Below, piece by piece: positions 8,377 to 58,711 of a stretch of 64,000 nucleotides of DNA. How positions within the stretch are numbered: position 1 is the stretch's first letter; each line of letters begins with the position of its first letter. Below the pieces are notes generated by a model. The model worked only from the letters and a program-made list of their open reading frames with translations. It did no database searches and had not been told where the DNA came from. The translations under genes were made by a program, and so were the position numbers. This stretch comes from Enterobacteria phage RB18, in sequence record NC_054906.1. The stretch is one strand, 5' to 3'.

Positions 8377-8847
8377 TTAATCATGTTTCCACACCCCATC
8401 GGTATTTGACCAAAGCCGCTGATTATCTGATCCTCGCCACAGCTTTTTAGTCGGAAGATTTTTCTCATACTTCCCATCAATAATAACATCAACATATTTA
8501 AGCATTTCTAGTTGTTTAATATCTTCAAACTTATATCCTGTCCACAACCAAATGCTTTTATTGGGATAAAGATTTTTTACTGTTTGAACAATGCAATGAA
8601 TAACATCTCGGTTATCAGGATAAAGAGGGTCTCCTCCAGTTATAGTCAATCCTTCTATATAATCATTATTCAAACATTCAATTAATTGTTCTAGTGTTTC
8701 ACCAGTGAATGGAATACCATTTCTAGCATTCCATGTTGATTTATTATAACACCCTTCGCATTTATGCAAACAACCTGTAACGAAAAGAACGACCCTGCAA
8801 CCAGGGCCATTAACAAAATCGCAAGGATAAAATCTATCATAATTCAT
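8377..8847 (-). CDS. nrdG: Anaerobic ribonucleotide reductase activating protein NrdG (radical SAM)
   Basis: 156 aa; cysteine cluster CLHKCEGC typical of glycyl-radical activases; overlaps the nrdD stop. Confidence 0.9.
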   Translation of the reverse strand: MNYDRFYPCDFVNGPGCRVVLFVTGCLHKCEGCYNKSTWNARNGIPFTGETLEQLIECLNNDYIEGLTITGGDPLYPDNRDVIHCIVQTVKNLYPNKSIWLWTGYKFEDIKQLEMLKYVDVIIDGKYEKNLPTKKLWRGSDNQRLWSNTDGVWKHD

Positions 8848-10661
8848 TGGTGCTTAACCCTATGCATGATTTCTTTATTTTTACCGAGATTAAATCCGCG
8901 TTCGTTAGGATTTCCCAAATAACCACATGTTCTTCTTATTGTGTTCATCTTTTTAGGATCAGTTTCTCCACAAATAGAACAAACAAATCCGTTTTCAGTA
9001 GGAGTCATTTCATGGGTACTTCCACACGTAAAACATTTATCTACTGGCATATTAACACCAAAATAATCTAAATGTTGTGCAGCATAATCCCATACGGCCT
9101 CAAGGCCTTTCAAGTTATTTTTCATATCAGGAAGTTCAACATAAGAAATGTGACCACCTGTCGCAATGAAATGATATGGCGCTTCACGAGAAATCTTTTC
9201 AAACGGAGTAATATTTTCTTCTACTGAAACATGGAAACTGTTAGTGTACCAACCTTTATCGGTAACATCTTTTACGCTTCCATATTTTTCTGTATCGAGT
9301 TTACAGAAGCGATAACAAAGGTTTTCAGCAGGAGTCGAATATAAACTAAAAGCAAATCCAGTTCTTTCAGTCCACTGTTTAAGATGAGCATTCATTTTAG
9401 TTAAAATTTCTCGTCCAATATCACGACCGACAAGAATATTCAATTCGTGAATACCAATGTATCCTAAAGACACTGAACTTCTACCGTTTTTAAATAACTC
9501 AATTATGTCGTCATCAGGTTTAAGACGAACCCCGAATGCACCTTCTTGGTAAAGAATAGGAGCAACAGTAGCTTTAACTCCTTTTAAGGAACTAATTCTA
9601 CACATCAAAGCTTCAAAACATAAATCCATTCGTTCATTAAATAGCTCAACAAATTTCTGTTCATTGAATTGTGTTCCAATATAAGAATCTAACGCGATGC
9701 GAGGAAGATTCAGTGTTACAACACCAAGATTATTACGTCCATCAAGAATTTCATTACCAGTCGAATCTTTCCATACGCTCAAGAAACTACGGCAACCCAT
9801 TGGAGAAACAGGAACAGATGAACCAGTGATAGCTTTATTGTTCTTAGCTGAAATAATATCAGGATACATCCTTTTGCTTGCGCACTCTAGAGCAAGTTGC
9901 TTAATGTCGTAATTCGGATCGTCTTTATAAAGATTAACGCCTTCTTCAACGAACATAACAAGCTTAGGGAAAATAGGAGTTATTCCATCACGACCGAGAC
10001 CTTTAATACGATTTTTCAGAATTGCTTTCTGAATCATTCGTTCAGTCCAGTCAGTTCCCGTACCAAATGTAATTGTTACAAAAGGTGTTTGCCCGTTTGA
10101 ACTAAAGAGAGTATTTACTTCATATTCATAAGCTTGGAATGCATCGTATACGTCTTTTTCTGTTTTAGATTGAGCATAATTCAACGCATCAGCGATTTGC
10201 CATTTTTCTGCATCCTCAATATGTTTTGCATAGGTGCGTTTAACATAAGGAGAAAGTACTTTATCTACATTAGCAAAAGTCGTTCCGCCGTATTGATGGG
10301 AAGCAACCTGTGCAGTAATTTGTGCCATAATTGCAGTAGCAACACCGATTGATTTAGGAGTTTCAATCTGTGCATTACCAAGCTTAAATCCATTCTCAAG
10401 CATTCCTTTTAAATCTACTAAACAACAATTAGTAAATGGAAGAGCAGGGGAATAATCAATATCGTGGAAATGGATAATTCCGCTTTCATGCGCTTTCATA
10501 ATAAAAGACGGGACCATATTTTTGGCAATGTGTTTAGACACAATACCAGCCATAAGGTCCCGTTGAGTTGGAAAAACACGAGAATCTTTATTAGCATTCT
10601 CGTTTAAAAGGTCTTTATTAGTTTTATGAATCAATCCTTCAATTTCTTTTTCAATTGTCAT
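8844..10661 (-). CDS. nrdD: Anaerobic ribonucleoside-triphosphate reductase NrdD, intron-less
   Basis: One uninterrupted 605-aa ORF; C-terminal glycyl-radical region RRTCGYLG and Cys-rich zinc ribbon (CFTCGSTHEM...CSICG). Confidence 0.9.
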   Translation of the reverse strand: MTIEKEIEGLIHKTNKDLLNENANKDSRVFPTQRDLMAGIVSKHIAKNMVPSFIMKAHESGIIHFHDIDYSPALPFTNCCLVDLKGMLENGFKLGNAQIETPKSIGVATAIMAQITAQVASHQYGGTTFANVDKVLSPYVKRTYAKHIEDAEKWQIADALNYAQSKTEKDVYDAFQAYEYEVNTLFSSNGQTPFVTITFGTGTDWTERMIQKAILKNRIKGLGRDGITPIFPKLVMFVEEGVNLYKDDPNYDIKQLALECASKRMYPDIISAKNNKAITGSSVPVSPMGCRSFLSVWKDSTGNEILDGRNNLGVVTLNLPRIALDSYIGTQFNEQKFVELFNERMDLCFEALMCRISSLKGVKATVAPILYQEGAFGVRLKPDDDIIELFKNGRSSVSLGYIGIHELNILVGRDIGREILTKMNAHLKQWTERTGFAFSLYSTPAENLCYRFCKLDTEKYGSVKDVTDKGWYTNSFHVSVEENITPFEKISREAPYHFIATGGHISYVELPDMKNNLKGLEAVWDYAAQHLDYFGVNMPVDKCFTCGSTHEMTPTENGFVCSICGETDPKKMNTIRRTCGYLGNPNERGFNLGKNKEIMHRVKHQ

Positions 10662-11677: not shown

Positions 11678-11782
11678 TTAAGTCATTTATCGTTGGTTCA
11701 TTATATACTGTTTCTTCATCAGTGTAAACCGGTTCTTCCGGCTCTGGCTCTACAGTTTCCCATCTAGCCGCCCACCAAGGTT

Positions 11783-12103
11783 TTATAGCGTAATCCATTC
11801 TCTTACTGTCTGAGTTACTACACGTTCTCGAAGCTCAACCAGTTCAACGGTAGGAACTGCATAATACCAGTCAGAATGGTAAGAACCTGAGCGAGATTCA
11901 TTTACAGCCACATGTACATTATGTTTTGGACTAAAATAAACACACTGACGATATTGGCATTTACCATCTTGCACCCAGTCTTCTATTTCGATAGGTTTAA
12001 GATAGTCGGAAAAATCGAAATCATAGTTTTCCGAAAATGCATCATGGTCTTCAATGATTTCGCTCAGAACTGCATCAACATCTAATTTATTTTCAATAGT
12101 CAT
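11783..12103 (-). CDS. Hypothetical protein
   Basis: 106-aa ORF. Confidence 0.5.
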   Translation of the reverse strand: MTIENKLDVDAVLSEIIEDHDAFSENYDFDFSDYLKPIEIEDWVQDGKCQYRQCVYFSPKHNVHVAVNESRSGSYHSDWYYAVPTVELVELRERVVTQTVREWITL

Positions 12104-25805: not shown

Positions 25806-26023
25806 GTCACCTTTAAGCAGTATTCTTCTACATGCTGTTTACGACCTTTCTTATCAATAAAGGTATATTCAACGAATGTTCCAATGTAGTCTTTATCTAC
25901 ATCATGTGGACTATTAATTGGACATTTAGTACGGCAAATGCGTTCCCATTGACGAATAATTACTGCCTTATTCTTTGGGTCATACGGATGTGGATAATGT
26001 ATATTCATAATAACGGTTCCCAA
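25796..26023 (-). CDS. Hypothetical small protein
   Basis: 75-aa ORF. Confidence 0.45.
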   Translation of the reverse strand: MGTVIMNIHYPHPYDPKNKAVIIRQWERICRTKCPINSPHDVDKDYIGTFVEYTFIDKKGRKQHVEEYCLKVTWL

Positions 26024-26472
26024 TCAACAATCACAATTTCTAATTTAGAGGAATATGTATCTAAAATCCCCTCAATAATATCCCAGTTCCCTTTACCTAT
26101 GCCTGCACCAATCCTAGGCATATAGATTGTAGGTTTAATCAGTTTATTTTCACCAAACTCATTTAATTCTAACATACAATTCATTAAAGCGGAATACTCA
26201 AAATTTGGCCCTGGTTGAAATTGAGTATAAAGGTTGAAGCAATACGCTTTATGAGTCCTAAAGTATTTTTCATAGACTGAGTAAGAACCGAGTTTAGTTA
26301 CATCACCCCATTCAGTCTGTAATTTATCAGCTTCCAAAATTTTAGGGAAAGCTTTGGTTAATTGACCCGCTACGCCTGAACCCATAGTATGAAAACAATT
26401 GCATCCATGCGCAATATTTTTACCTTCAGCGAAAAGGGCGACAATATCGCCCTTGATATATTTTACAATCAT
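26005..26472 (-). CDS. Macrodomain protein (TARG1/DarG-like family)
   Basis: 155 aa; KGDIVALFAEGKNIAHGCNCFHTMGSGVAGQL and MPRIGAGIGKGNWD resemble, from memory, the TARG1/DarG-type macrodomain signature. Confidence 0.6.
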   Translation of the reverse strand: MIVKYIKGDIVALFAEGKNIAHGCNCFHTMGSGVAGQLTKAFPKILEADKLQTEWGDVTKLGSYSVYEKYFRTHKAYCFNLYTQFQPGPNFEYSALMNCMLELNEFGENKLIKPTIYMPRIGAGIGKGNWDIIEGILDTYSSKLEIVIVDWEPLL

Positions 26473-26816
26473 CTAGTACTCAATCCTCGATTATAAGAAT
26501 CTACCAAACGGTCAACCATTGAATGACAAGCGGCTTTATCTTTCTCCTCCGCAACTGAACATTCTAAGGTATTCCACTTTTTAGCATATCGTTTTAATAA
26601 TGTATCGTTTTTGTATCTACTTGATTTATCTCTTTCTCCGTCTTTATATGCATATATTAATTTCTGTGCAAATTCAGCTTGACATGCTTTATTTTTCCCA
26701 CAATAATCTGCCGCAGTGCGGTTTACATATTCTCTAATTTCAGTATATGATGTATCTGCTGATGCAGAAGCAGAAAATGAAATTAATCCTATACATAAAA
26801 CCAAAATTTTAGTCAT
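26469..26816 (-). CDS. Secreted small protein with signal peptide
   Basis: 115 aa; N-terminus MTKILVLCIGLISFSASASA; four Cys in the mature part. Confidence 0.5.
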   Translation of the reverse strand: MTKILVLCIGLISFSASASADTSYTEIREYVNRTAADYCGKNKACQAEFAQKLIYAYKDGERDKSSRYKNDTLLKRYAKKWNTLECSVAEEKDKAACHSMVDRLVDSYNRGLSTR

Positions 26817-27354
26817 TTACTATTTCCAAAAGTTTATTATTTTTAAGGTAATTAGCCTTTTCTAGGACTTCAGAAGCATATTTAGAACCAGCTTTAACAT
26901 TCCATCCCGAATTATAAGAGGATATTGCTTTTCTTATATCGCCCTTATGTATATTTAACCAATAAGAAAGTTCAATGTACGCCCAGGAAGCTGAATTGGA
27001 TCGTTTATTCAACATTCTTTTTATTTCAGCATCGGTCATATTATAACCAAGTTCCTTAACTCTTGCTCGCATAGTAGGCAAATAATTTTGGAACATTCCG
27101 TAGGCGTGATGCTTTGGTTTAGATTTTAAATTAACTCCGCCAGAGCTTTCTTGCCATAAAATAGCAGCCATTATATGACCTAATCCGCTCTTGTGGATAT
27201 TTTTGTGTGTTTTATATTTTCCATCCTTAGAAAATTGTTCCCCGAATTGATACGCGTAACGCATGTTATCGAGTTGGACATTACTGAAAGTATGCTCGGA
27301 GCTATGTGCCATCATTGAAATGGCCAATAGACCAGCGAGTAGTGCTTTTCTCAT
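26809..27354 (-). CDS. Secreted lytic-transglycosylase-like protein
   Basis: 181 aa; signal peptide MRKALLAGLLAISMMAHS; motif ILWQESSGG...AYGMFQ resembles family-1 lytic transglycosylases. Confidence 0.55.
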   Translation of the reverse strand: MRKALLAGLLAISMMAHSSEHTFSNVQLDNMRYAYQFGEQFSKDGKYKTHKNIHKSGLGHIMAAILWQESSGGVNLKSKPKHHAYGMFQNYLPTMRARVKELGYNMTDAEIKRMLNKRSNSASWAYIELSYWLNIHKGDIRKAISSYNSGWNVKAGSKYASEVLEKANYLKNNKLLEIVND

Positions 27355-27361
27355 GCTTACC

Positions 27362-27823
27362 TCATTGAGTTTTAATTACTGCTTTAGAAGCCTTTCCTGG
27401 TAAACGACGACTGTTGATAATTGCCATCCTACATTGAAGTGACGGGTTTTTGAACTTCTCATTAGGTTTACAAACCGTAAATCCAAGCCAAAGATTTCCA
27501 TCTGTAATTTCCAAACGCCCAGGACGATATTCAACCCCATCAATAAAATCCTCGTCAATGTCAGGACGCGGAGGCATACTCAGGAATTCATTAACTTCTA
27601 AAACATGGTCTTTTATTTTATGGAATAATTCAAAAACGTATGTCTCATCAATCTCCCGTTGAATTGCGCGATCAAGAAGATGCTGAGAATATTTTAGATG
27701 AAACGATGAGACTCCTGCTGCTTTTGATGCCTCACGAATCTCATTGTTAATTTGACGAAACTCCGACTCAAAGTGACGACGAAGCTTATTTCGACGGATA
27801 AAAACTTCTGTATTGATAGTCAT
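27362..27823 (-). CDS. regB: Endoribonuclease RegB
   Basis: 153 aa, MTINTEVFIRRNKLRRHFESEFRQ...; matches my recollection of T4 RegB; preceded by a near-consensus early promoter. Confidence 0.85.
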   Translation of the reverse strand: MTINTEVFIRRNKLRRHFESEFRQINNEIREASKAAGVSSFHLKYSQHLLDRAIQREIDETYVFELFHKIKDHVLEVNEFLSMPPRPDIDEDFIDGVEYRPGRLEITDGNLWLGFTVCKPNEKFKNPSLQCRMAIINSRRLPGKASKAVIKTQ

Positions 27824-27851
27824 GTTATTCTCCTCTTAACTGATAGAAAAA

Positions 27852-27881
27852 TTATACCACAGTCAAGAGGAAAAGTAAACA
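27852..27881 (-). promoter_or_regulatory. Early promoter of regB (near-consensus)
   Basis: GTTTAC (27876-27881), 18-nt spacer, TGTGGTATAAT (27852-27857). Confidence 0.65.
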
Positions 27882-27882
27882 A

Positions 27883-28161
27883 TTATTCTTTAAATCTGAT
27901 TAATTTATTCATAGACTTTGAAACTTCTGCACGAACCTCATGTAAGTTTTTAAGCTGTTCAAGACGCTGTTCATAGTAAGCAATTTCATCTTCTTCGAGA
28001 CAGTCCTGTGAATCTTCTTTAAGATAACGTGCATAGTCCTGGAAAGCTTTACGGACTACTTCCTGGAAGTCATCAAGACTTTGAATTTTCTTAGGAGCGG
28101 CAGATACACGACGAGGGGCAGTATAATACTCATAACCAAACCCTGCACTTAATTGAGCCAT
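27883..28161 (-). CDS. Hypothetical small protein
   Basis: 92 aa from ATG 28161, which overlaps the upstream stop (TAATG). Confidence 0.4.
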
Positions 28162-28463
28162 TAGTATTTTTCCTCTGGTTGGAACACAGCACGGCAAGCC
28201 CACATACTTGCTTCTTTGAGTTTCGTTTTAGCAATAGTTAACTGATCGAGGCTTTCGGCGTAATTCTTCGCGAGTTCATCATCTTCACAGCTATCAAATG
28301 CTTCCCAAAATTCATCGTATAAAGCATCAAAGATAAGTCCTAAACGAACTTCAGCGTCTTTGATAGCATTCACTTTACCGATTTTCTCTTCAGTATGCGG
28401 CTTATAACCTTTAATGTCTTCAATCATATTTGACTTCCTCACCAGTACATAAATCATATTCAA
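28161..28463 (-). CDS. Hypothetical small acidic protein
   Basis: 100-aa ORF. Confidence 0.45.
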
Positions 28464-28641
28464 CTAAACGAATAGGTTCATGAATGCCATATCCCTGAAC
28501 AGAAATTTCTGTCGTAGGATAAATTCCATCAATATCACCCATATTCCACGCTTCGTTAAATTGCTGTTCGCCTGAATTACTAAACCACTCGGCGAAAGCA
28601 TTTAGCACATCTTTAGAACCTTCAATAATTATCTTTGCCAT
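28420..28641 (-). CDS. Hypothetical small protein
   Basis: 73-aa ORF. Confidence 0.4.
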   Translation of the reverse strand: MAKIIIEGSKDVLNAFAEWFSNSGEQQFNEAWNMGDIDGIYPTTEISVQGYGIHEPIRLVEYDLCTGEEVKYD

Positions 28642-29003
28642 TATAAGCTCTCAGTAAAGGTACGAGCAATAACGTCGCGCTGCTGTTCCGGAGTCAGAGA
28701 GTTAAAGCGAACTGCATAACCGGATACACGGATGGTCAGCTGTGGATATTTTTCCGGATGCTTAACTGCATCTTCCAGAGTTTCACGACGCAGAACGTTA
28801 ACGTTCAGGTGTTGACCACCTTCAATTTTAACTGTAGGCTGTGGCTCAATTTCAATTTCACGAGCATGCAAACCGTAGAAAATTTCTGGGTCTACAAAAG
28901 AGTCCTCTTTAAAGGTTTTAGAGACAATAATTCGTGCTTGAATACCATCTTCAAAATAAATAGTACCTTTATGTGTGCCTTCAAGAATTTGATATGCTTT
29001 CAT
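28641..29003 (-). CDS. GrcA/YfiD-like glycyl-radical spare-part protein; chimeric, with host-like 3' half
   Basis: 120 aa; C-terminal [29 protein letters not shown] glycyl-radical motif; the DNA for the C-terminal half is clearly GC-rich compared with the AT-rich 5' half and neighbours. Confidence 0.7.
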
Positions 29004-29010
29004 ATAAACC

Positions 29011-29340
29011 TCAATTAGAAAATAAATTTATCCAAGATTGTTCTTTAATTAAAAATGGCTCAGAATCATATGCCATTAAACTCTGTGTGATTAGTCCTTT
29101 AAAAGGTCCATCAATAAATTCCATGGTAAAATATGGAATTTTATTCATTAACTGTGCGTTAGGAGCAGTGCACAAAACTCTGCATCCTTTGAATACGCCT
29201 TTTTGTAATTTGTATTGCTTGGGATAAAATTCGCTTAAAATGTTGTTATTTGCCAAAATTTCAAAATGATTCACCAATTTATTTTTAATAGTTTTTGGCG
29301 AAAAATAAAGATATTCGAAAAGCTGTGTGTCTGTCATCAT
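29011..29340 (-). CDS. Hypothetical protein
   Basis: About 109 aa from an internal ATG of the track ORF. Confidence 0.4.
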
Positions 29341-29876
29341 TGCATTCCGATTACGAAAAACTGTGGACGAGTAATACCACCAATACAACATTTACTATTA
29401 CAGCAGTAGTGTACAGTCTCAATATGGACACTATAAATCTTATCCATATCAGGAGATTTGACAGGCTCATCAATTATATACAAAATTCGCGAAAGCGATA
29501 AACCTCTGAACTTGCTTCCTTTATTACCAATAAAACTGCGCACAGAATCAGTAAATAAACGAAAACGTATATCATCATTAGAATAACGCGAAAATTCCTT
29601 TTTAATGTTATTTGCAGAAATTTTAGCGTAAGCTGAAGTATTAGAAAGAACGATAACTGTTCCGCCATCATACAACCAATTAGCAGCAAAGTTAGTCACA
29701 GCAATTGATTTACCGGATTGACGTCCACCATCTAGTCGAAGTGTGCAATACTGTTTAAGTAATTCTTCAAATGGCGGGATATATTCGTTTTTACAAATTT
29801 CTTCTACTCTAGCATCAGAATGGTGTGTAAAAGCATTCATCAGGGATAGATAAGGACCAGTTAAAAATGTTCTCAT
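29337..29876 (-). CDS. P-loop NTPase-like protein
   Basis: 179 aa from ATG 29876; Walker A-like GGRQSGKS; occupies the slot where T4 has denV/ipII. Confidence 0.5.
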   Translation of the reverse strand: MRTFLTGPYLSLMNAFTHHSDARVEEICKNEYIPPFEELLKQYCTLRLDGGRQSGKSIAVTNFAANWLYDGGTVIVLSNTSAYAKISANNIKKEFSRYSNDDIRFRLFTDSVRSFIGNKGSKFRGLSLSRILYIIDEPVKSPDMDKIYSVHIETVHYCCNSKCCIGGITRPQFFVIGMQ

Positions 29877-30029
29877 TTTATTCTCTCTAGGTTTGGGCCA
29901 TTCCGTGGCGCATGAATTGTCCATTTCTGTATTTACCCATTACCGCACTTGGGCTCGACCTTATTACAGGTTGGCGGGAATCCCTCACAGAATCATGAGG
30001 TCCAGGTTGTTCCCATATTTCTTATTTGC

Positions 30030-30503
30030 TTATTTGAACGATTTAACGTACTGAATAGAACCTTTACTATTCACAAAGGCAATTTTACCATTTTTGTTAT
30101 ACATGGTAGCAGTACGTTGATAGCCATAAGTTTGTTTACCAGATTGATAACCAACTAATGCAAAATTATCTTCACCCATTTTATTCTGTTTAGCGCGAAT
30201 ACGTTCATGACCATGTGCCATAAGAACCTTAGCATCACCTGTTGCAATGGATCGACGAGTTTTTTCATCTTCAACTGTATTAACAAAGTCGTCAAATGAA
30301 TCAAATTTAGCATGAGATTTATTATACAGTTTTCCATCTACTGCATAATTATATCCCTGTACATCCATCTCAACTTCTGTACCATCATCCAGTACAGCAG
30401 TGATTTTCTGTCCTTTTTTAAATTTCAAAAGATCAGTAAAAGATTCAGCAATAATTTGAGAATTAATAGCTGCTTCAGTAATAAATTCTTGATATGTTTT
30501 CAT
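30030..30503 (-). CDS. Internal (capsid-packaged) protein with capsid-targeting sequence, ipII/ipIII locus
   Basis: 157 aa starting MKTYQEFITEA, the T4 internal-protein targeting leader; adjacent to lysozyme e. Confidence 0.6.
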   Translation of the reverse strand: MKTYQEFITEAAINSQIIAESFTDLLKFKKGQKITAVLDDGTEVEMDVQGYNYAVDGKLYNKSHAKFDSFDDFVNTVEDEKTRRSIATGDAKVLMAHGHERIRAKQNKMGEDNFALVGYQSGKQTYGYQRTATMYNKNGKIAFVNSKGSIQYVKSFK

Positions 30504-30563
30504 GTGTATCCTTTAAATGTAAATATTTTAATTAATAATTTATCTCTTCAAGTAACTGTGAAT

Positions 30564-30593
30564 ATACTATCACAATTCTAGGAAAAAGTAAAC
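30564..30593 (-). promoter_or_regulatory. Early promoter upstream of the internal-protein gene
   Basis: GTTTAC (30588-30593), 18-nt spacer, TGATAGTAT. Confidence 0.5.
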
Positions 30594-30597
30594 AACT

Positions 30598-31566
<969 letters not shown>

Positions 31567-31585
<19 letters not shown>

Positions 31586-32055
31586 TCAGTGATAAAGTTA
31601 TTTAAATTTTGAGTATATTTCTTTTCATCAAAAATCTTTTGCTGTCTGCGTAACCGCCATGGCATTTCAATGAACGCGCACCATATCCCAGATAATATTG
31701 CTGCTGTCAAAATATTAACAAGCATAATTAAAAGAATCCAATCTCCTGTTCTGCCTATTGGACTTTCTCCAAAGAAGCAAAATACGAATGATGACACAGG
31801 AAGACTAATAATATACCACAGAATCATAATTTTATTTGTAAACCAATCAGCATTTGTTAACTTAGCGCGACCATTATGAATACACACGAATTTATCATCT
31901 GTTATAATAGATGGCTTAGCTGCTTGATATCCCATTCTAAACTCCCTAATCAACAAATTTTTCATATCTTCGGAACAACCATTCCAGTCAACTCTATCAA
32001 CTGAAATGCCATCATCCCCATCATCTAAATCATACCAGCGAGTTTTTAAAATCAT
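31567..32055 (-). CDS. Small membrane protein, tandem paralogue 1
   Basis: 162 aa; two hydrophobic helices; C-terminal tail ...NFITECRKLK. Confidence 0.5.
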
Positions 32056-36535: not shown

Positions 36536-36539
36536 CAAA

Positions 36540-36626
36540 TTGGTGGGGAGTGATGGAGTCGAACCACCCGAGTCGCAATGACAATGGATTTACAGTCCAC
36601 ACCGCTACCTCTACGGGATAACTCCC
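36540..36626 (-). tRNA. tRNA-Tyr (anticodon GUA), long variable arm
   Basis: 87 nt; anticodon loop CUGUAAA; type-II variable arm; acceptor GGGGAGT/ACTCCCC. Confidence 0.7.
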
Positions 36627-36632
36627 CTTAAT

Positions 36633-51277: not shown

Positions 51278-52274
51278 TTCAAGTGTTATCTATCGTGCGA
51301 TAGTTACTTCAAAATTTAGAACAGAAAAAATGTTGAATTTTTATAATTCAATTGGAAGTGGTCCGGATAAAAACACTATCTTTATCACATTTGGAAGATC
51401 AGAACCATGGTCATCAAATGAAAATGAGGCGGGCTTTGCCCCGCCTTATCCCACTGATTCTGTATTAGGTGTAACTGACATGTGGACGCATATGATGGGA
51501 ACAGTAAAGGTTCTTCCATCGATGCTCGATGCAGTTATTCCTCGTCGAGATTGGGGAGATACTAGATATCCGGATCCATACACGTTTAGAATTAATGATA
51601 TTGTAGTGTGTAACTCAGCTCCTTACAACGCTACTGAATCAGGCGCAGGCTGGTTAGTATATCGTTGTTTAGATGTTCCTGATACCGGAATGTGTTCAAT
51701 CGCATCTTTAACTGATAAGGATGAATGCCTTAAGTTAGGTGGAAAATGGACTCCTTCTGCTAGGTCAATGACTCCTCCTGAAGGTCGAGGAGATGCTGAA
51801 GGAACAATTGAACCTGGGGACGGATATGTTTGGGAATATCTATTTGAGATTCCGCCTGATGTATCTATAAATAGATGCACGAATGAATATATCGTGGTTC
51901 CTTGGCCTGAGGAATTAAAAGAAAATCCGACTAGATGGGGATATGAAGATAATCTCACTTGGCAACAAGATGATTTTGGATTAATTTACCGTGTTAAGGC
52001 AAATACTATCCGTTTTAAAGCATATTTAGATTCAGTTTATTTTCCTGAAGCTGCATTGCCGGGAAATAAAGGATTTAGACAAATATCAATAATCACGAAT
52101 CCTCTTGAAGCTAAAGCTCATCCAAATGACCCAAATGTTAAAGCTGAAAAGGATTATTATGATCCGGAAGATTTAATGAGGCATTCGGGCGAAATGATTT
52201 ATATGGAAAATAGGCCACCTATTATTATGGCAATGGATCAGACAGAAGAAATCAATATTCTGTTTACATTTTAA
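51270..52274 (+). CDS. 8: Baseplate wedge protein gp8
   Basis: 334 aa; followed by an intrinsic terminator. Confidence 0.9.
   Translation: MNDSSVIYRAIVTSKFRTEKMLNFYNSIGSGPDKNTIFITFGRSEPWSSNENEAGFAPPYPTDSVLGVTDMWTHMMGTVKVLPSMLDAVIPRRDWGDTRYPDPYTFRINDIVVCNSAPYNATESGAGWLVYRCLDVPDTGMCSIASLTDKDECLKLGGKWTPSARSMTPPEGRGDAEGTIEPGDGYVWEYLFEIPPDVSINRCTNEYIVVPWPEELKENPTRWGYEDNLTWQQDDFGLIYRVKANTIRFKAYLDSVYFPEAALPGNKGFRQISIITNPLEAKAHPNDPNVKAEKDYYDPEDLMRHSGEMIYMENRPPIIMAMDQTEEINILFTF

Positions 52275-55671: not shown

Positions 55672-58711
<3,040 letters not shown>

Follow-up and report, generated by a model that had tools for sequence, protein, structure and literature searches.

The vs.6 gene of phage RB18 and its surroundings

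The 64,000-nucleotide stretch of Enterobacteria phage RB18 analyzed here (NC_054906.1; hereafter the window) carries on its minus strand a 120-residue open reading frame (ORF; 28641..29003) that encodes a phage autonomous glycyl radical cofactor and is the vs.6 gene, ortholog of T4 Y06I. The assignment draws on the ORF itself, Pfam, nucleotide identity and synteny. A sequence-only reading of this DNA had recognized, from the ORF list and the sequence, a protein with the C-terminus [29 protein letters not shown] and the glycyl radical signature of the E. coli spare-part protein GrcA (YfiD). This recognition was correct: the ORF scores 66.8 bits against Pfam Gly_radical (PF01228; cut-off 22.2), is 99.7% identical at the nucleotide level to Tequatrovirus genes annotated grcA or vs.6, and encodes a protein that shares 119/120 residues with T4 vs.6, the single difference being R73 here and H73 in T4. 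‘Autonomous glycyl radical cofactor’ is the annotation of vs.6 in hundreds of records, and the gene and its function are already known from T4. Our main finding concerns the DNA of this gene, which is a mosaic of an AT-rich phage-type 5' half and a 3' tract of E. coli grcA type.

The 5' half (28826..29003, minus strand) runs from codon 1 to the first base of codon 60; judged by GC content, identity and profile comparison, it is a diverged GrcA N-terminal region written in phage-type AT-rich codons. The adjoining host-derived tract (ORF bases 179-353, window 28825..28651, minus strand) encodes the structured glycyl radical module and is identical at 175/175 nucleotides to the grcA allele of E. 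coli strains 2EC1 and LR-45. The last 10 bases of the ORF (28641..28650, minus strand) are of phage type, reading GAG AGC TTA TAA against host GAA AGC CTG TAA; the three differences from 2EC1 are synonymous, and the sites concerned vary among phages. A PFL-type (pyruvate formate-lyase) RVSGYAV motif is present in the C-terminal glycyl radical domain. This motif, an alignment offset of +7 to GrcA and the alignment to PFL identify the GGT codon at 28719..28721 (minus strand) as that of Gly95, the predicted radical glycine, equivalent to GrcA G102 and PFL G734.

The window as a whole is Tequatrovirus DNA. Phages AR1, RB27 and RB14 match positions 26000-32000 at 97-98% identity, and the T4 lysozyme gene lies at 30598..31092. 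The gene order vs.8-vs.7-vs.6-vs.5-vs.4-vs.3-regB matches that of T4, AR1, PST and Sf22, and both orthology and its conserved place in the regB-denV/e early region assign the gene to the T4 vs.6 orthologous group, a conserved ORF of the Straboviridae; vs.6 has been listed as conserved in six of six T4-like genomes (PMC1524935). It encodes a small free-standing protein (~14 kDa class), bounded by vs.7 and vs.5 and without the PFL catalytic barrel. The downstream ORF vs.5 (28420..28641, minus strand; from the ORF list) starts within the vs.6 stop, in a TAATG overlap, read from the sequence, where the final A of the vs.6 stop codon also opens the vs.5 ATG. The same overlap is annotated in T4, PST, Sf22 and Mizar, and the arrangement makes translational coupling of the two genes likely. 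Sequence reading also places a Shine-Dalgarno-like GAGG (29009..29012, minus strand) 5-8 nt upstream of the vs.6 ATG, overlapping the stop of vs.7, whose ORF ends at 29011. A promoter and terminator scan around vs.6 returned 13 promoter-like sites, with 12.1 expected. Two genes downstream of vs.6, vs.4 (28161-28463, minus strand) matches the hairpin domain of Acb2/Tad1, an anti-CBASS cyclic-nucleotide sponge (Pfam, 1.2e-19), and in many relatives (RB16, CC31, Jiaodavirus) it directly follows vs.6.

A host-type tract within a phage-type gene

The boundary between the two halves is abrupt. ORF bases 179-363 (window 28825..28641) are 97.3-98.4% identical to grcA in all of the 5,426 complete E. 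coli genomes compared, and a maximum chi-square scan placed the breakpoint after ORF base 178, with an identity of 70/151 (46%) on the left and 179/182 (98%) on the right (Fisher p=5e-31). At the protein level, the phage module (residues 61-120) reproduces GrcA residues 68-127 of E. coli without a change, as the sequence-only reading had proposed for the last ~60 residues. Composition changes at the same point: GC content rises from 0.343 in the 5' half to 0.47 in the tract (window mean 0.351, sd 0.041), and GC content at third codon positions (GC3) from 0.20 to 0.40, with E. coli grcA at 0.39-0.40. Just 0.8% of 185-nt windows reach the GC content of the tract, and most of the others are tRNA genes. 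The GC-rich, host-like half had been drawn by eye to about 28830, within 5 bases of the boundary found here, and both the nucleotide similarity to E. coli grcA and the coinciding GC step are present. The phage-host junction (phage residue 60, GrcA residue 67) also coincides with the domain boundary of YfiD.

Megablast against the E. coli genomes detected no other chromosomal match in the entire 64-kb window. The sole match to the E. coli collection besides the grcA tract is a tRNA-Tyr gene (~36539-36632), which is 80-90% identical to tRNA-Tyr on about 257 E. coli plasmid records, with one at 90.5%; these records presumably represent phage-plasmids. Positions 11727-11914, 51393-51584 and 56361-56902 are as GC-rich as the grcA tract, yet have no megablast match to E. 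coli.

Sequence comparison clearly points to Escherichia as the donor genus and to grcA, not pflB, as the donor gene. After Escherichia, the genus closest to the RB18 core is Citrobacter (about 90%), and phage cores agree with pflB at only about 83%. Over the codon-phased core of 174 nt, RB18 matches the 2EC1/LR-45 allele at 173/174 positions and the common E. coli allele at 98.3%. Bacterial grcA cores differ considerably at synonymous sites, with a synonymous divergence (dS) of 0.59 between E. coli and Klebsiella, 1.1 between E. coli and Salmonella, and 0.4-1.1 between genera. Since these cores diverge freely, near-zero dS between phage and host reflects shared DNA ancestry and not constraint. 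The T4 core has no synonymous difference from the common E. coli allele, which argues that the tract is recent. Host derivation at the DNA level and a recent evolutionary date are thus both supported by the sequence comparisons.

These data bear directly on the idea that the whole gene came from the host and that the disordered N-terminal half then diverged quickly, while selection froze the structured half down to its synonymous sites. The N-terminal region of YfiD is indeed disordered and tolerant of change, and the module protein is invariant among phages (nonsynonymous divergence, dN=0). However, synonymous sites in the module vary in bacteria and also in native phage copies (dS 0.59 between EnC15 and CC31), identity climbs from 46% to 98% within a few bases, and GC3 doubles at the junction. 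We therefore regard whole-gene capture as extremely unlikely. An assembly artefact, in which contaminating host reads created a chimeric gene, has nothing in its favor beyond the unusual host identity. It is refuted by replication of the junction, which recurs in more than 660 phage records sequenced independently, the T4 reference among them; the intact frame, the phage-type last codons and the overlap with vs.5 speak against it as well, and its probability is close to nil. The same distribution qualifies the earlier proposal of a recently captured host fragment: the DNA is host-derived and recent, but the capture is neither new nor private to RB18, since the junction is found in T4 and in about 630 Tequatrovirus and Mosigvirus records.

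The N-terminal half had been described as a phage-specific domain to which the host fragment was fused. This description does not hold. We compared the N-halves of 13 diverse phage proteins with those of 13 bacterial GrcA proteins (residues 2-67), excluding the C-terminal block, and the two groups aligned over 60 columns at 27% identity (hhalign 96.6%, E=6.9e-10). Residues 22-59 of vs.6 are aligned to GrcA already by BLASTP and phmmer, and a pairwise alignment of the N-half to E. coli GrcA contains 14 identical positions. Relatives of vs.6 are encoded by 1,587 phage records, of which 1,538 cover at least 80% of the protein. AT-rich full-length grcA homologs without a close bacterial match occur in Karamvirus, T5-like, jumbo and Aeromonas phages. 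The Karamvirus phages EnC15 and CC31 have a core GC3 of 0.21-0.28 and are at most about 82% identical to their best match among 85 bacterial grcA genes. By the same measure, the T5-like phages (GC3 ~0.3) reach ~76%, the jumbo phage fHe-Yen9-04 (GC3 0.10) reaches 78%, and the Aeromonas phages reach 68-78%, with a GC3 of 0.33-0.40 in L9-6, PX29 and an IMG/VR contig (L140). Protein conservation by itself predicts an identity of about 73-76%.

Capture of a 3' grcA fragment by illegitimate recombination, with in-frame fusion to an unrelated phage-specific ORF, would produce the sharp step in composition and identity at ORF base 178, and would fit an N-half that has no Pfam hit of its own. It is contradicted by the homology of the N-halves and by the existence of full-length phage homologs with phage-like 3' halves. 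In addition, the tract ends before the ORF does, leaving the phage-type final codons in place, as homologous replacement predicts. We judge such a fusion very unlikely. Because the N-halves are homologous, AT-rich full-length versions exist and both ends of the tract fall inside the ORF, we instead interpret vs.6 as a pre-existing phage homolog in which a patch was replaced.

Two observations from the wider homolog search are recorded here. Several viral-contig loci (L136, L176-L186) are host-like but have bacterial-type or long N-terminal contexts; they are probably bacterial grcA or pflB/tdcE fragments and were not counted as phage conversions. Contigs L126-L130 are 82-86% identical to Haemophilus, a match that shared AT-richness can produce.

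Host-matched cores across related phages

A parallel pattern is found in Klebsiella phages. Jiaodaviruses have an AT-rich 5' half of the same type as that of Tequatroviruses, joined to cores with a GC3 of 0.60-0.64; identity of these cores to grcA is 95-97% for K. pneumoniae and about 87% for E. coli. These cores share a run of ~130 identical nucleotides with K. pneumoniae from the same 5' edge, and end some 25-45 nt before the stop, a 3' junction different from that of Tequatrovirus. At least 90% identity to the K. pneumoniae core is reached by 134 phage records, all of them Klebsiella phages among the matches listed, whereas E. coli phages stay at 86-89%. Species-specific residues also follow the host: Klebsiella phages encode LLDAVE where E. 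coli phages encode LEDAVK.

Among E. coli phages, the two halves of the gene have different histories. When Tequatroviruses are compared with Mizar, dS reaches 0.53-0.61 for the 5' half but stays at 0.05-0.10 for the core (Fisher p=2e-4 to 8e-4). In about 175 records the 5' half is less than 95% identical to the RB18 window, and almost all Tequatrovirus and Mosigvirus 3' halves are at least 95% identical to it. The cores are also not all of one host type: T4 and Sf22 match the common E. coli allele at 173/174 positions, whereas RB18 matches the rare allele of 2EC1 (L001) and LR-45 (L095). These strains, from Singapore and Ecuador, are the two among 5,426 genomes whose core agrees with RB18 up to the phage-type final codons. 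Their ung-grcA-eamB locus is 4.3% divergent from common E. coli (93/2185 sites), and since this divergence extends over the whole locus, transfer from host to phage explains the RB18 match. Back-transfer from phage to host as the source of the 2EC1/LR-45 allele was considered and dropped, natural host variation being sufficient. Finally, four Escherichia alleles differ from one another at five core sites, and at each of these sites phages are polymorphic for the same base (hypergeometric p=2e-4, or 7.5e-3 without sites 81 and 156).

It is conceivable that a single founding replacement occurred in the Tequatrovirus/Mosigvirus ancestor and another in Jiaodavirus, and that recombination between phages, together with selective sweeps, then spread the cores, keeping core divergence among phages low without repeated exchange with hosts. 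All sampled Tequatroviruses and Mosigviruses share one 5' junction, T4-like phages are generally known to recombine readily in co-infection, and phage core variants at sites 12, 15, 48, 57, 69, 162 and 165 are absent from the four host alleles sampled. One old event would, however, have left the phage cores as a diverged clade. Instead, different phages match different Escherichia alleles at 173/174 positions, every sampled host-polymorphic core site recurs in phages with the same base, and the T4 core shows zero synonymous differences from the present common allele while 5' halves differ with a dS of up to 0.6. We consider single founding events improbable, and core replacement has probably been host-specific and recurrent, as judged from these comparisons. 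A stronger form of this proposal is that the ~175-nt module undergoes ongoing concerted evolution, being repeatedly overwritten by the current host's grcA allele, so that the spare part matches host PFL and its activase PflA exactly, and decaying toward AT-richness between events. We hold this form to be true with only slightly better than even odds.

Other lineages hint at further donors. PKO111, a Jiaodavirus isolated on K. oxytoca (301-663 of its locus), has a core with a GC3 of 0.62 that is 89% identical to K. pneumoniae grcA. Compared with other Jiaodaviruses, its core is 91-92% identical (dS 0.38-0.46) and its 5' half 94-96%, a reversed contrast that suggests another donor for the core. 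In Pseudotevenvirus, Slopekvirus and Krischvirus, identity is 80-86% and GC3 is raised; as a speculation, these may be older, partly decayed events.

In the accessible literature, which excludes key older T4 papers, we found no description of concerted evolution of phage grcA with its host. With respect to the gene, it mentions only the domain match (PMC1524935), and the mosaic may already be on record in the older T4 papers.

Some database records in this comparison call for comment. Two of them are in PLSDB (CP125156.1 and LR134122.1; L097, L098): a 5.37-Mb K. pneumoniae ‘plasmid’, which is clearly a chromosome under the wrong label, and the record of K. aerogenes NCTC10006, in which an extra A (+1) shifts the grcA frame, most likely through an assembly error. 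The record NZ_JBQPOM010000029.1 (L040), labelled ‘Vagococcus sp. WN89Y’ (Firmicutes), has an enterobacterial-type grcA, 91% identical to E. coli in amino acids, which suggests contamination or mislabelling.

A spare part possibly kept matched to its host

According to PMC8683613, Wagner et al. (2001) showed that E. coli YfiD and T4 Y06I are spare parts on which the PFL-activating enzyme installs a glycyl radical and which restore PFL that has been cleaved by oxygen at G734, its radical site; the two remain the sole validated spare parts. PMC8683613 also describes YfiD residues 1-60 as disordered and as promoting binding and activation, and residues 61-127 as having the fold of PFL 693-759 and being sufficient for catalysis. 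The 5' half of vs.6 corresponds to the disordered region 1-60 of YfiD. The best Protein Data Bank (PDB) matches of vs.6 are YfiD/GrcA (6OWR; E=9e-42, residues 22-120) and PFL 697-759 (E=5e-26, residues 58-120). The NCBIfam matches to 28641-29003 also include GrcA2 (80 aa) and GrcA3 (78 aa), which consist essentially of the C-terminal module only. Spare parts that lack the N-half thus occur naturally, and this bears on the contribution of the divergent N-half in phages.

The sequence-only reading had proposed repair of host PFL or, conceivably, of the phage's own NrdD. The first of these is what has been reported for T4 Y06I (PMC8683613); the second finds no similarity at the radical site. RB18 does encode the class III anaerobic glycyl radical ribonucleotide reductase NrdD (8844..10661, minus strand; Pfam NRDD 571.8 bits, plus Gly_radical) and its radical-SAM activase NrdG (8377..8847, minus strand; Pfam Fer4_12 164 bits, Radical_SAM, and the AR1 annotation), with NrdD as a putative functional partner. 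The vs.6 gene of Aeromonas phage PX29 (1-2447 of its locus) belongs to the cluster nrdD-nrdG-vs.6-nrdC-nrdH, its start overlapping the end of nrdG, and in phage phiWae14 grcA adjoins nrdG. These arrangements suggest a functional tie of vs.6 to anaerobic nucleotide reduction, and a role in nucleotide metabolism was speculated upon by Nolan et al. 2006 (PMC1524935). Against a role of vs.6 as a spare part for oxygen-cleaved NrdD and not for host PFL, the vs.6 module equals that of host GrcA and aligns with PFL, BLASTP between it and the NrdD of the window reaches E=2.7 and leaves the radical sites unaligned (RVSGYAV and RRTCGYLG), and NrdD chains are absent from its PDB matches at E<=1e-3. Together with the reported rescue of PFL by Y06I, this makes NrdD repair highly unlikely from the sequence data. 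Formate, made by PFL, is the reductant of class III ribonucleotide reductase, and an indirect connection from vs.6 through PFL and formate to NrdD is plausible.

We propose that vs.6 is the Y06I ortholog and a PFL spare part whose module was overwritten by host grcA within a pre-existing phage homolog, and that the same has happened repeatedly in related phages; we put the probability of this overall explanation at roughly 80%. Following the mechanism reported for the T4 protein and E. coli YfiD, host PflA would install the glycyl radical at Gly95 of the C-terminal module (residues ~60-120). The charged module would dock into host PFL cut by oxygen at G734 and restore its activity, with the poorly conserved N-half aiding binding and activation. 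During infection in the micro-oxic gut, PFL could then continue to make acetyl-CoA, ATP and formate, and the formate might serve the phage's own NrdD/NrdG as reductant.

As to origin, an old grcA homolog, full-length and AT-rich, would have been present in T4-like, T5-like and jumbo enterobacterial phages. Homologous, non-reciprocal recombination with E. coli grcA would then have overwritten ~175 nt of its module in the Tequatrovirus/Mosigvirus lineage, and the two junctions fall inside the ORF, at the borders of the conserved block. Host DNA is fragmented by T4-like phages, whose recombination-dependent replication is highly active. A host grcA fragment could pair with the conserved vs.6 block and be copied, and copying would incorporate the phage-type modified cytosine. 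Homology stops abruptly upstream of the E-G-G codons, so independent events would share their 5' edge, and because the tract is about 98% host-identical, further exchange is easier. Phage copies might in this way be re-homogenised repeatedly against current host alleles, and the Klebsiella Jiaodaviruses would have undergone a parallel replacement with K. pneumoniae grcA. Selection may have acted for an exact match to host PFL and PflA or for host-optimal codons. Alternatively, neutral fixation of the host core is possible.

Several points weigh against this interpretation. The protein scores 153.3 bits against the NCBIfam GrcA equivalog TIGR04365 (IPR011140), below the cut-off of 170; this is nevertheless the best-scoring family, matched over residues 20-120, and the shortfall stems from the divergent N-terminus. 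The function assigned to RB18 vs.6 depends on analogy with the T4 ortholog, and the NrdD/formate link on gene content and Aeromonas phage synteny. Recurrence within E. coli phages is drawn from a small number of informative sites and from four host alleles, and the overlap could be exaggerated by mutability specific to certain sites. Sites 81 and 156 were moreover ascertained through their best match to the RB18 window, and the lower significance obtained without them (p~7.5e-3) is the unbiased figure. The identical 5' junction in all lineages could reflect one founding event followed by phage-phage spread of the core. Host labels do not always agree with core type: Tequatroviruses labelled Yersinia, Hafnia and Proteus carry proteins 99-100% identical to that of RB18, with the E. 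coli-type module; Yersinia phage PST, the one such phage compared at the DNA level, has an E. coli-type core; and K. aerogenes phages carry K. pneumoniae-type cores. Lastly, no donor of the PKO111 core was found: metagenome contigs scanned for exact 29-mers returned 0 matches, and none of the 85 bacterial grcA genes exceeded 89%.

For T4 specialists the gene and its biochemical role are textbook-level, and our finding therefore adds nothing new on function. The remaining interest lies in the clean, host-tracking pattern of gene conversion. The vs.6 tract is a very clean natural patch of host DNA in a virulent phage, with base-level junctions at a protein domain boundary, and the sole such patch in 64 kb. 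If recurrence is true, vs.6 would be a convenient natural reporter of how frequently lytic T4-like phages recombine with host chromosomes, and an example of an auxiliary gene that is kept compatible with a host enzyme by copying and not by point mutation. It would also matter for how therapeutic T4-like phages adapt their host range in a gut that is anaerobic or micro-oxic.

Comparison with known systems places RB18 vs.6 closest to T4 vs.6/Y06I, which resembles it in nearly all residues, in its position between vs.7 and vs.5, in its host-type 3' half and in the junction itself. Apart from residue 73, the two differ in that the T4 core is of the common allele type and the RB18 core of the 2EC1/LR-45 type. 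E. coli GrcA (YfiD, PDB 6OWR) shares the two-part architecture of a variable N-half and a structured radical module, and the N-halves are homologous. RB18 vs.6 is 7 residues shorter, has an AT-rich N-half and falls below the equivalog cut-off; moreover, E. coli grcA adjoins ung, whereas vs.6 is located in an early/middle gene block of a virulent phage. The C-terminal glycyl radical domain of PflB (~693-759) is mimicked by vs.6 residues 58-120, but vs.6 is free-standing and lacks the 10-stranded barrel and the catalytic cysteines. The native phage GrcA homologs (vs.6 of CC31 and EnC15, and those of Tequintavirus, Eneladusvirus fHe-Yen9-04 and Aeromonas phages) are of the same family and length, with an MKAYQ..-type N-terminus and a conserved module; unlike RB18 vs.6, they have 3' halves of phage composition that reach at most about 82% identity to sampled bacterial grcA.

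The closest parallel in evolutionary process, and in process only, is found in cyanophages. Intragenic recombination between host and phage in cyanophage psbA and psbD was reportedly described by Zeidner et al. in 2005 and Sullivan et al. in 2006. There too, a metabolic gene of virulent T4-like phages contains host-like patches that have been attributed to exchange with the host. Gene, hosts and function are different, and the vs.6 patch stands apart in being nearly 100% identical to its donor, in having junctions at a domain boundary, and in occurring in phages that have hydroxymethylcytosine DNA and degrade the DNA of their host.

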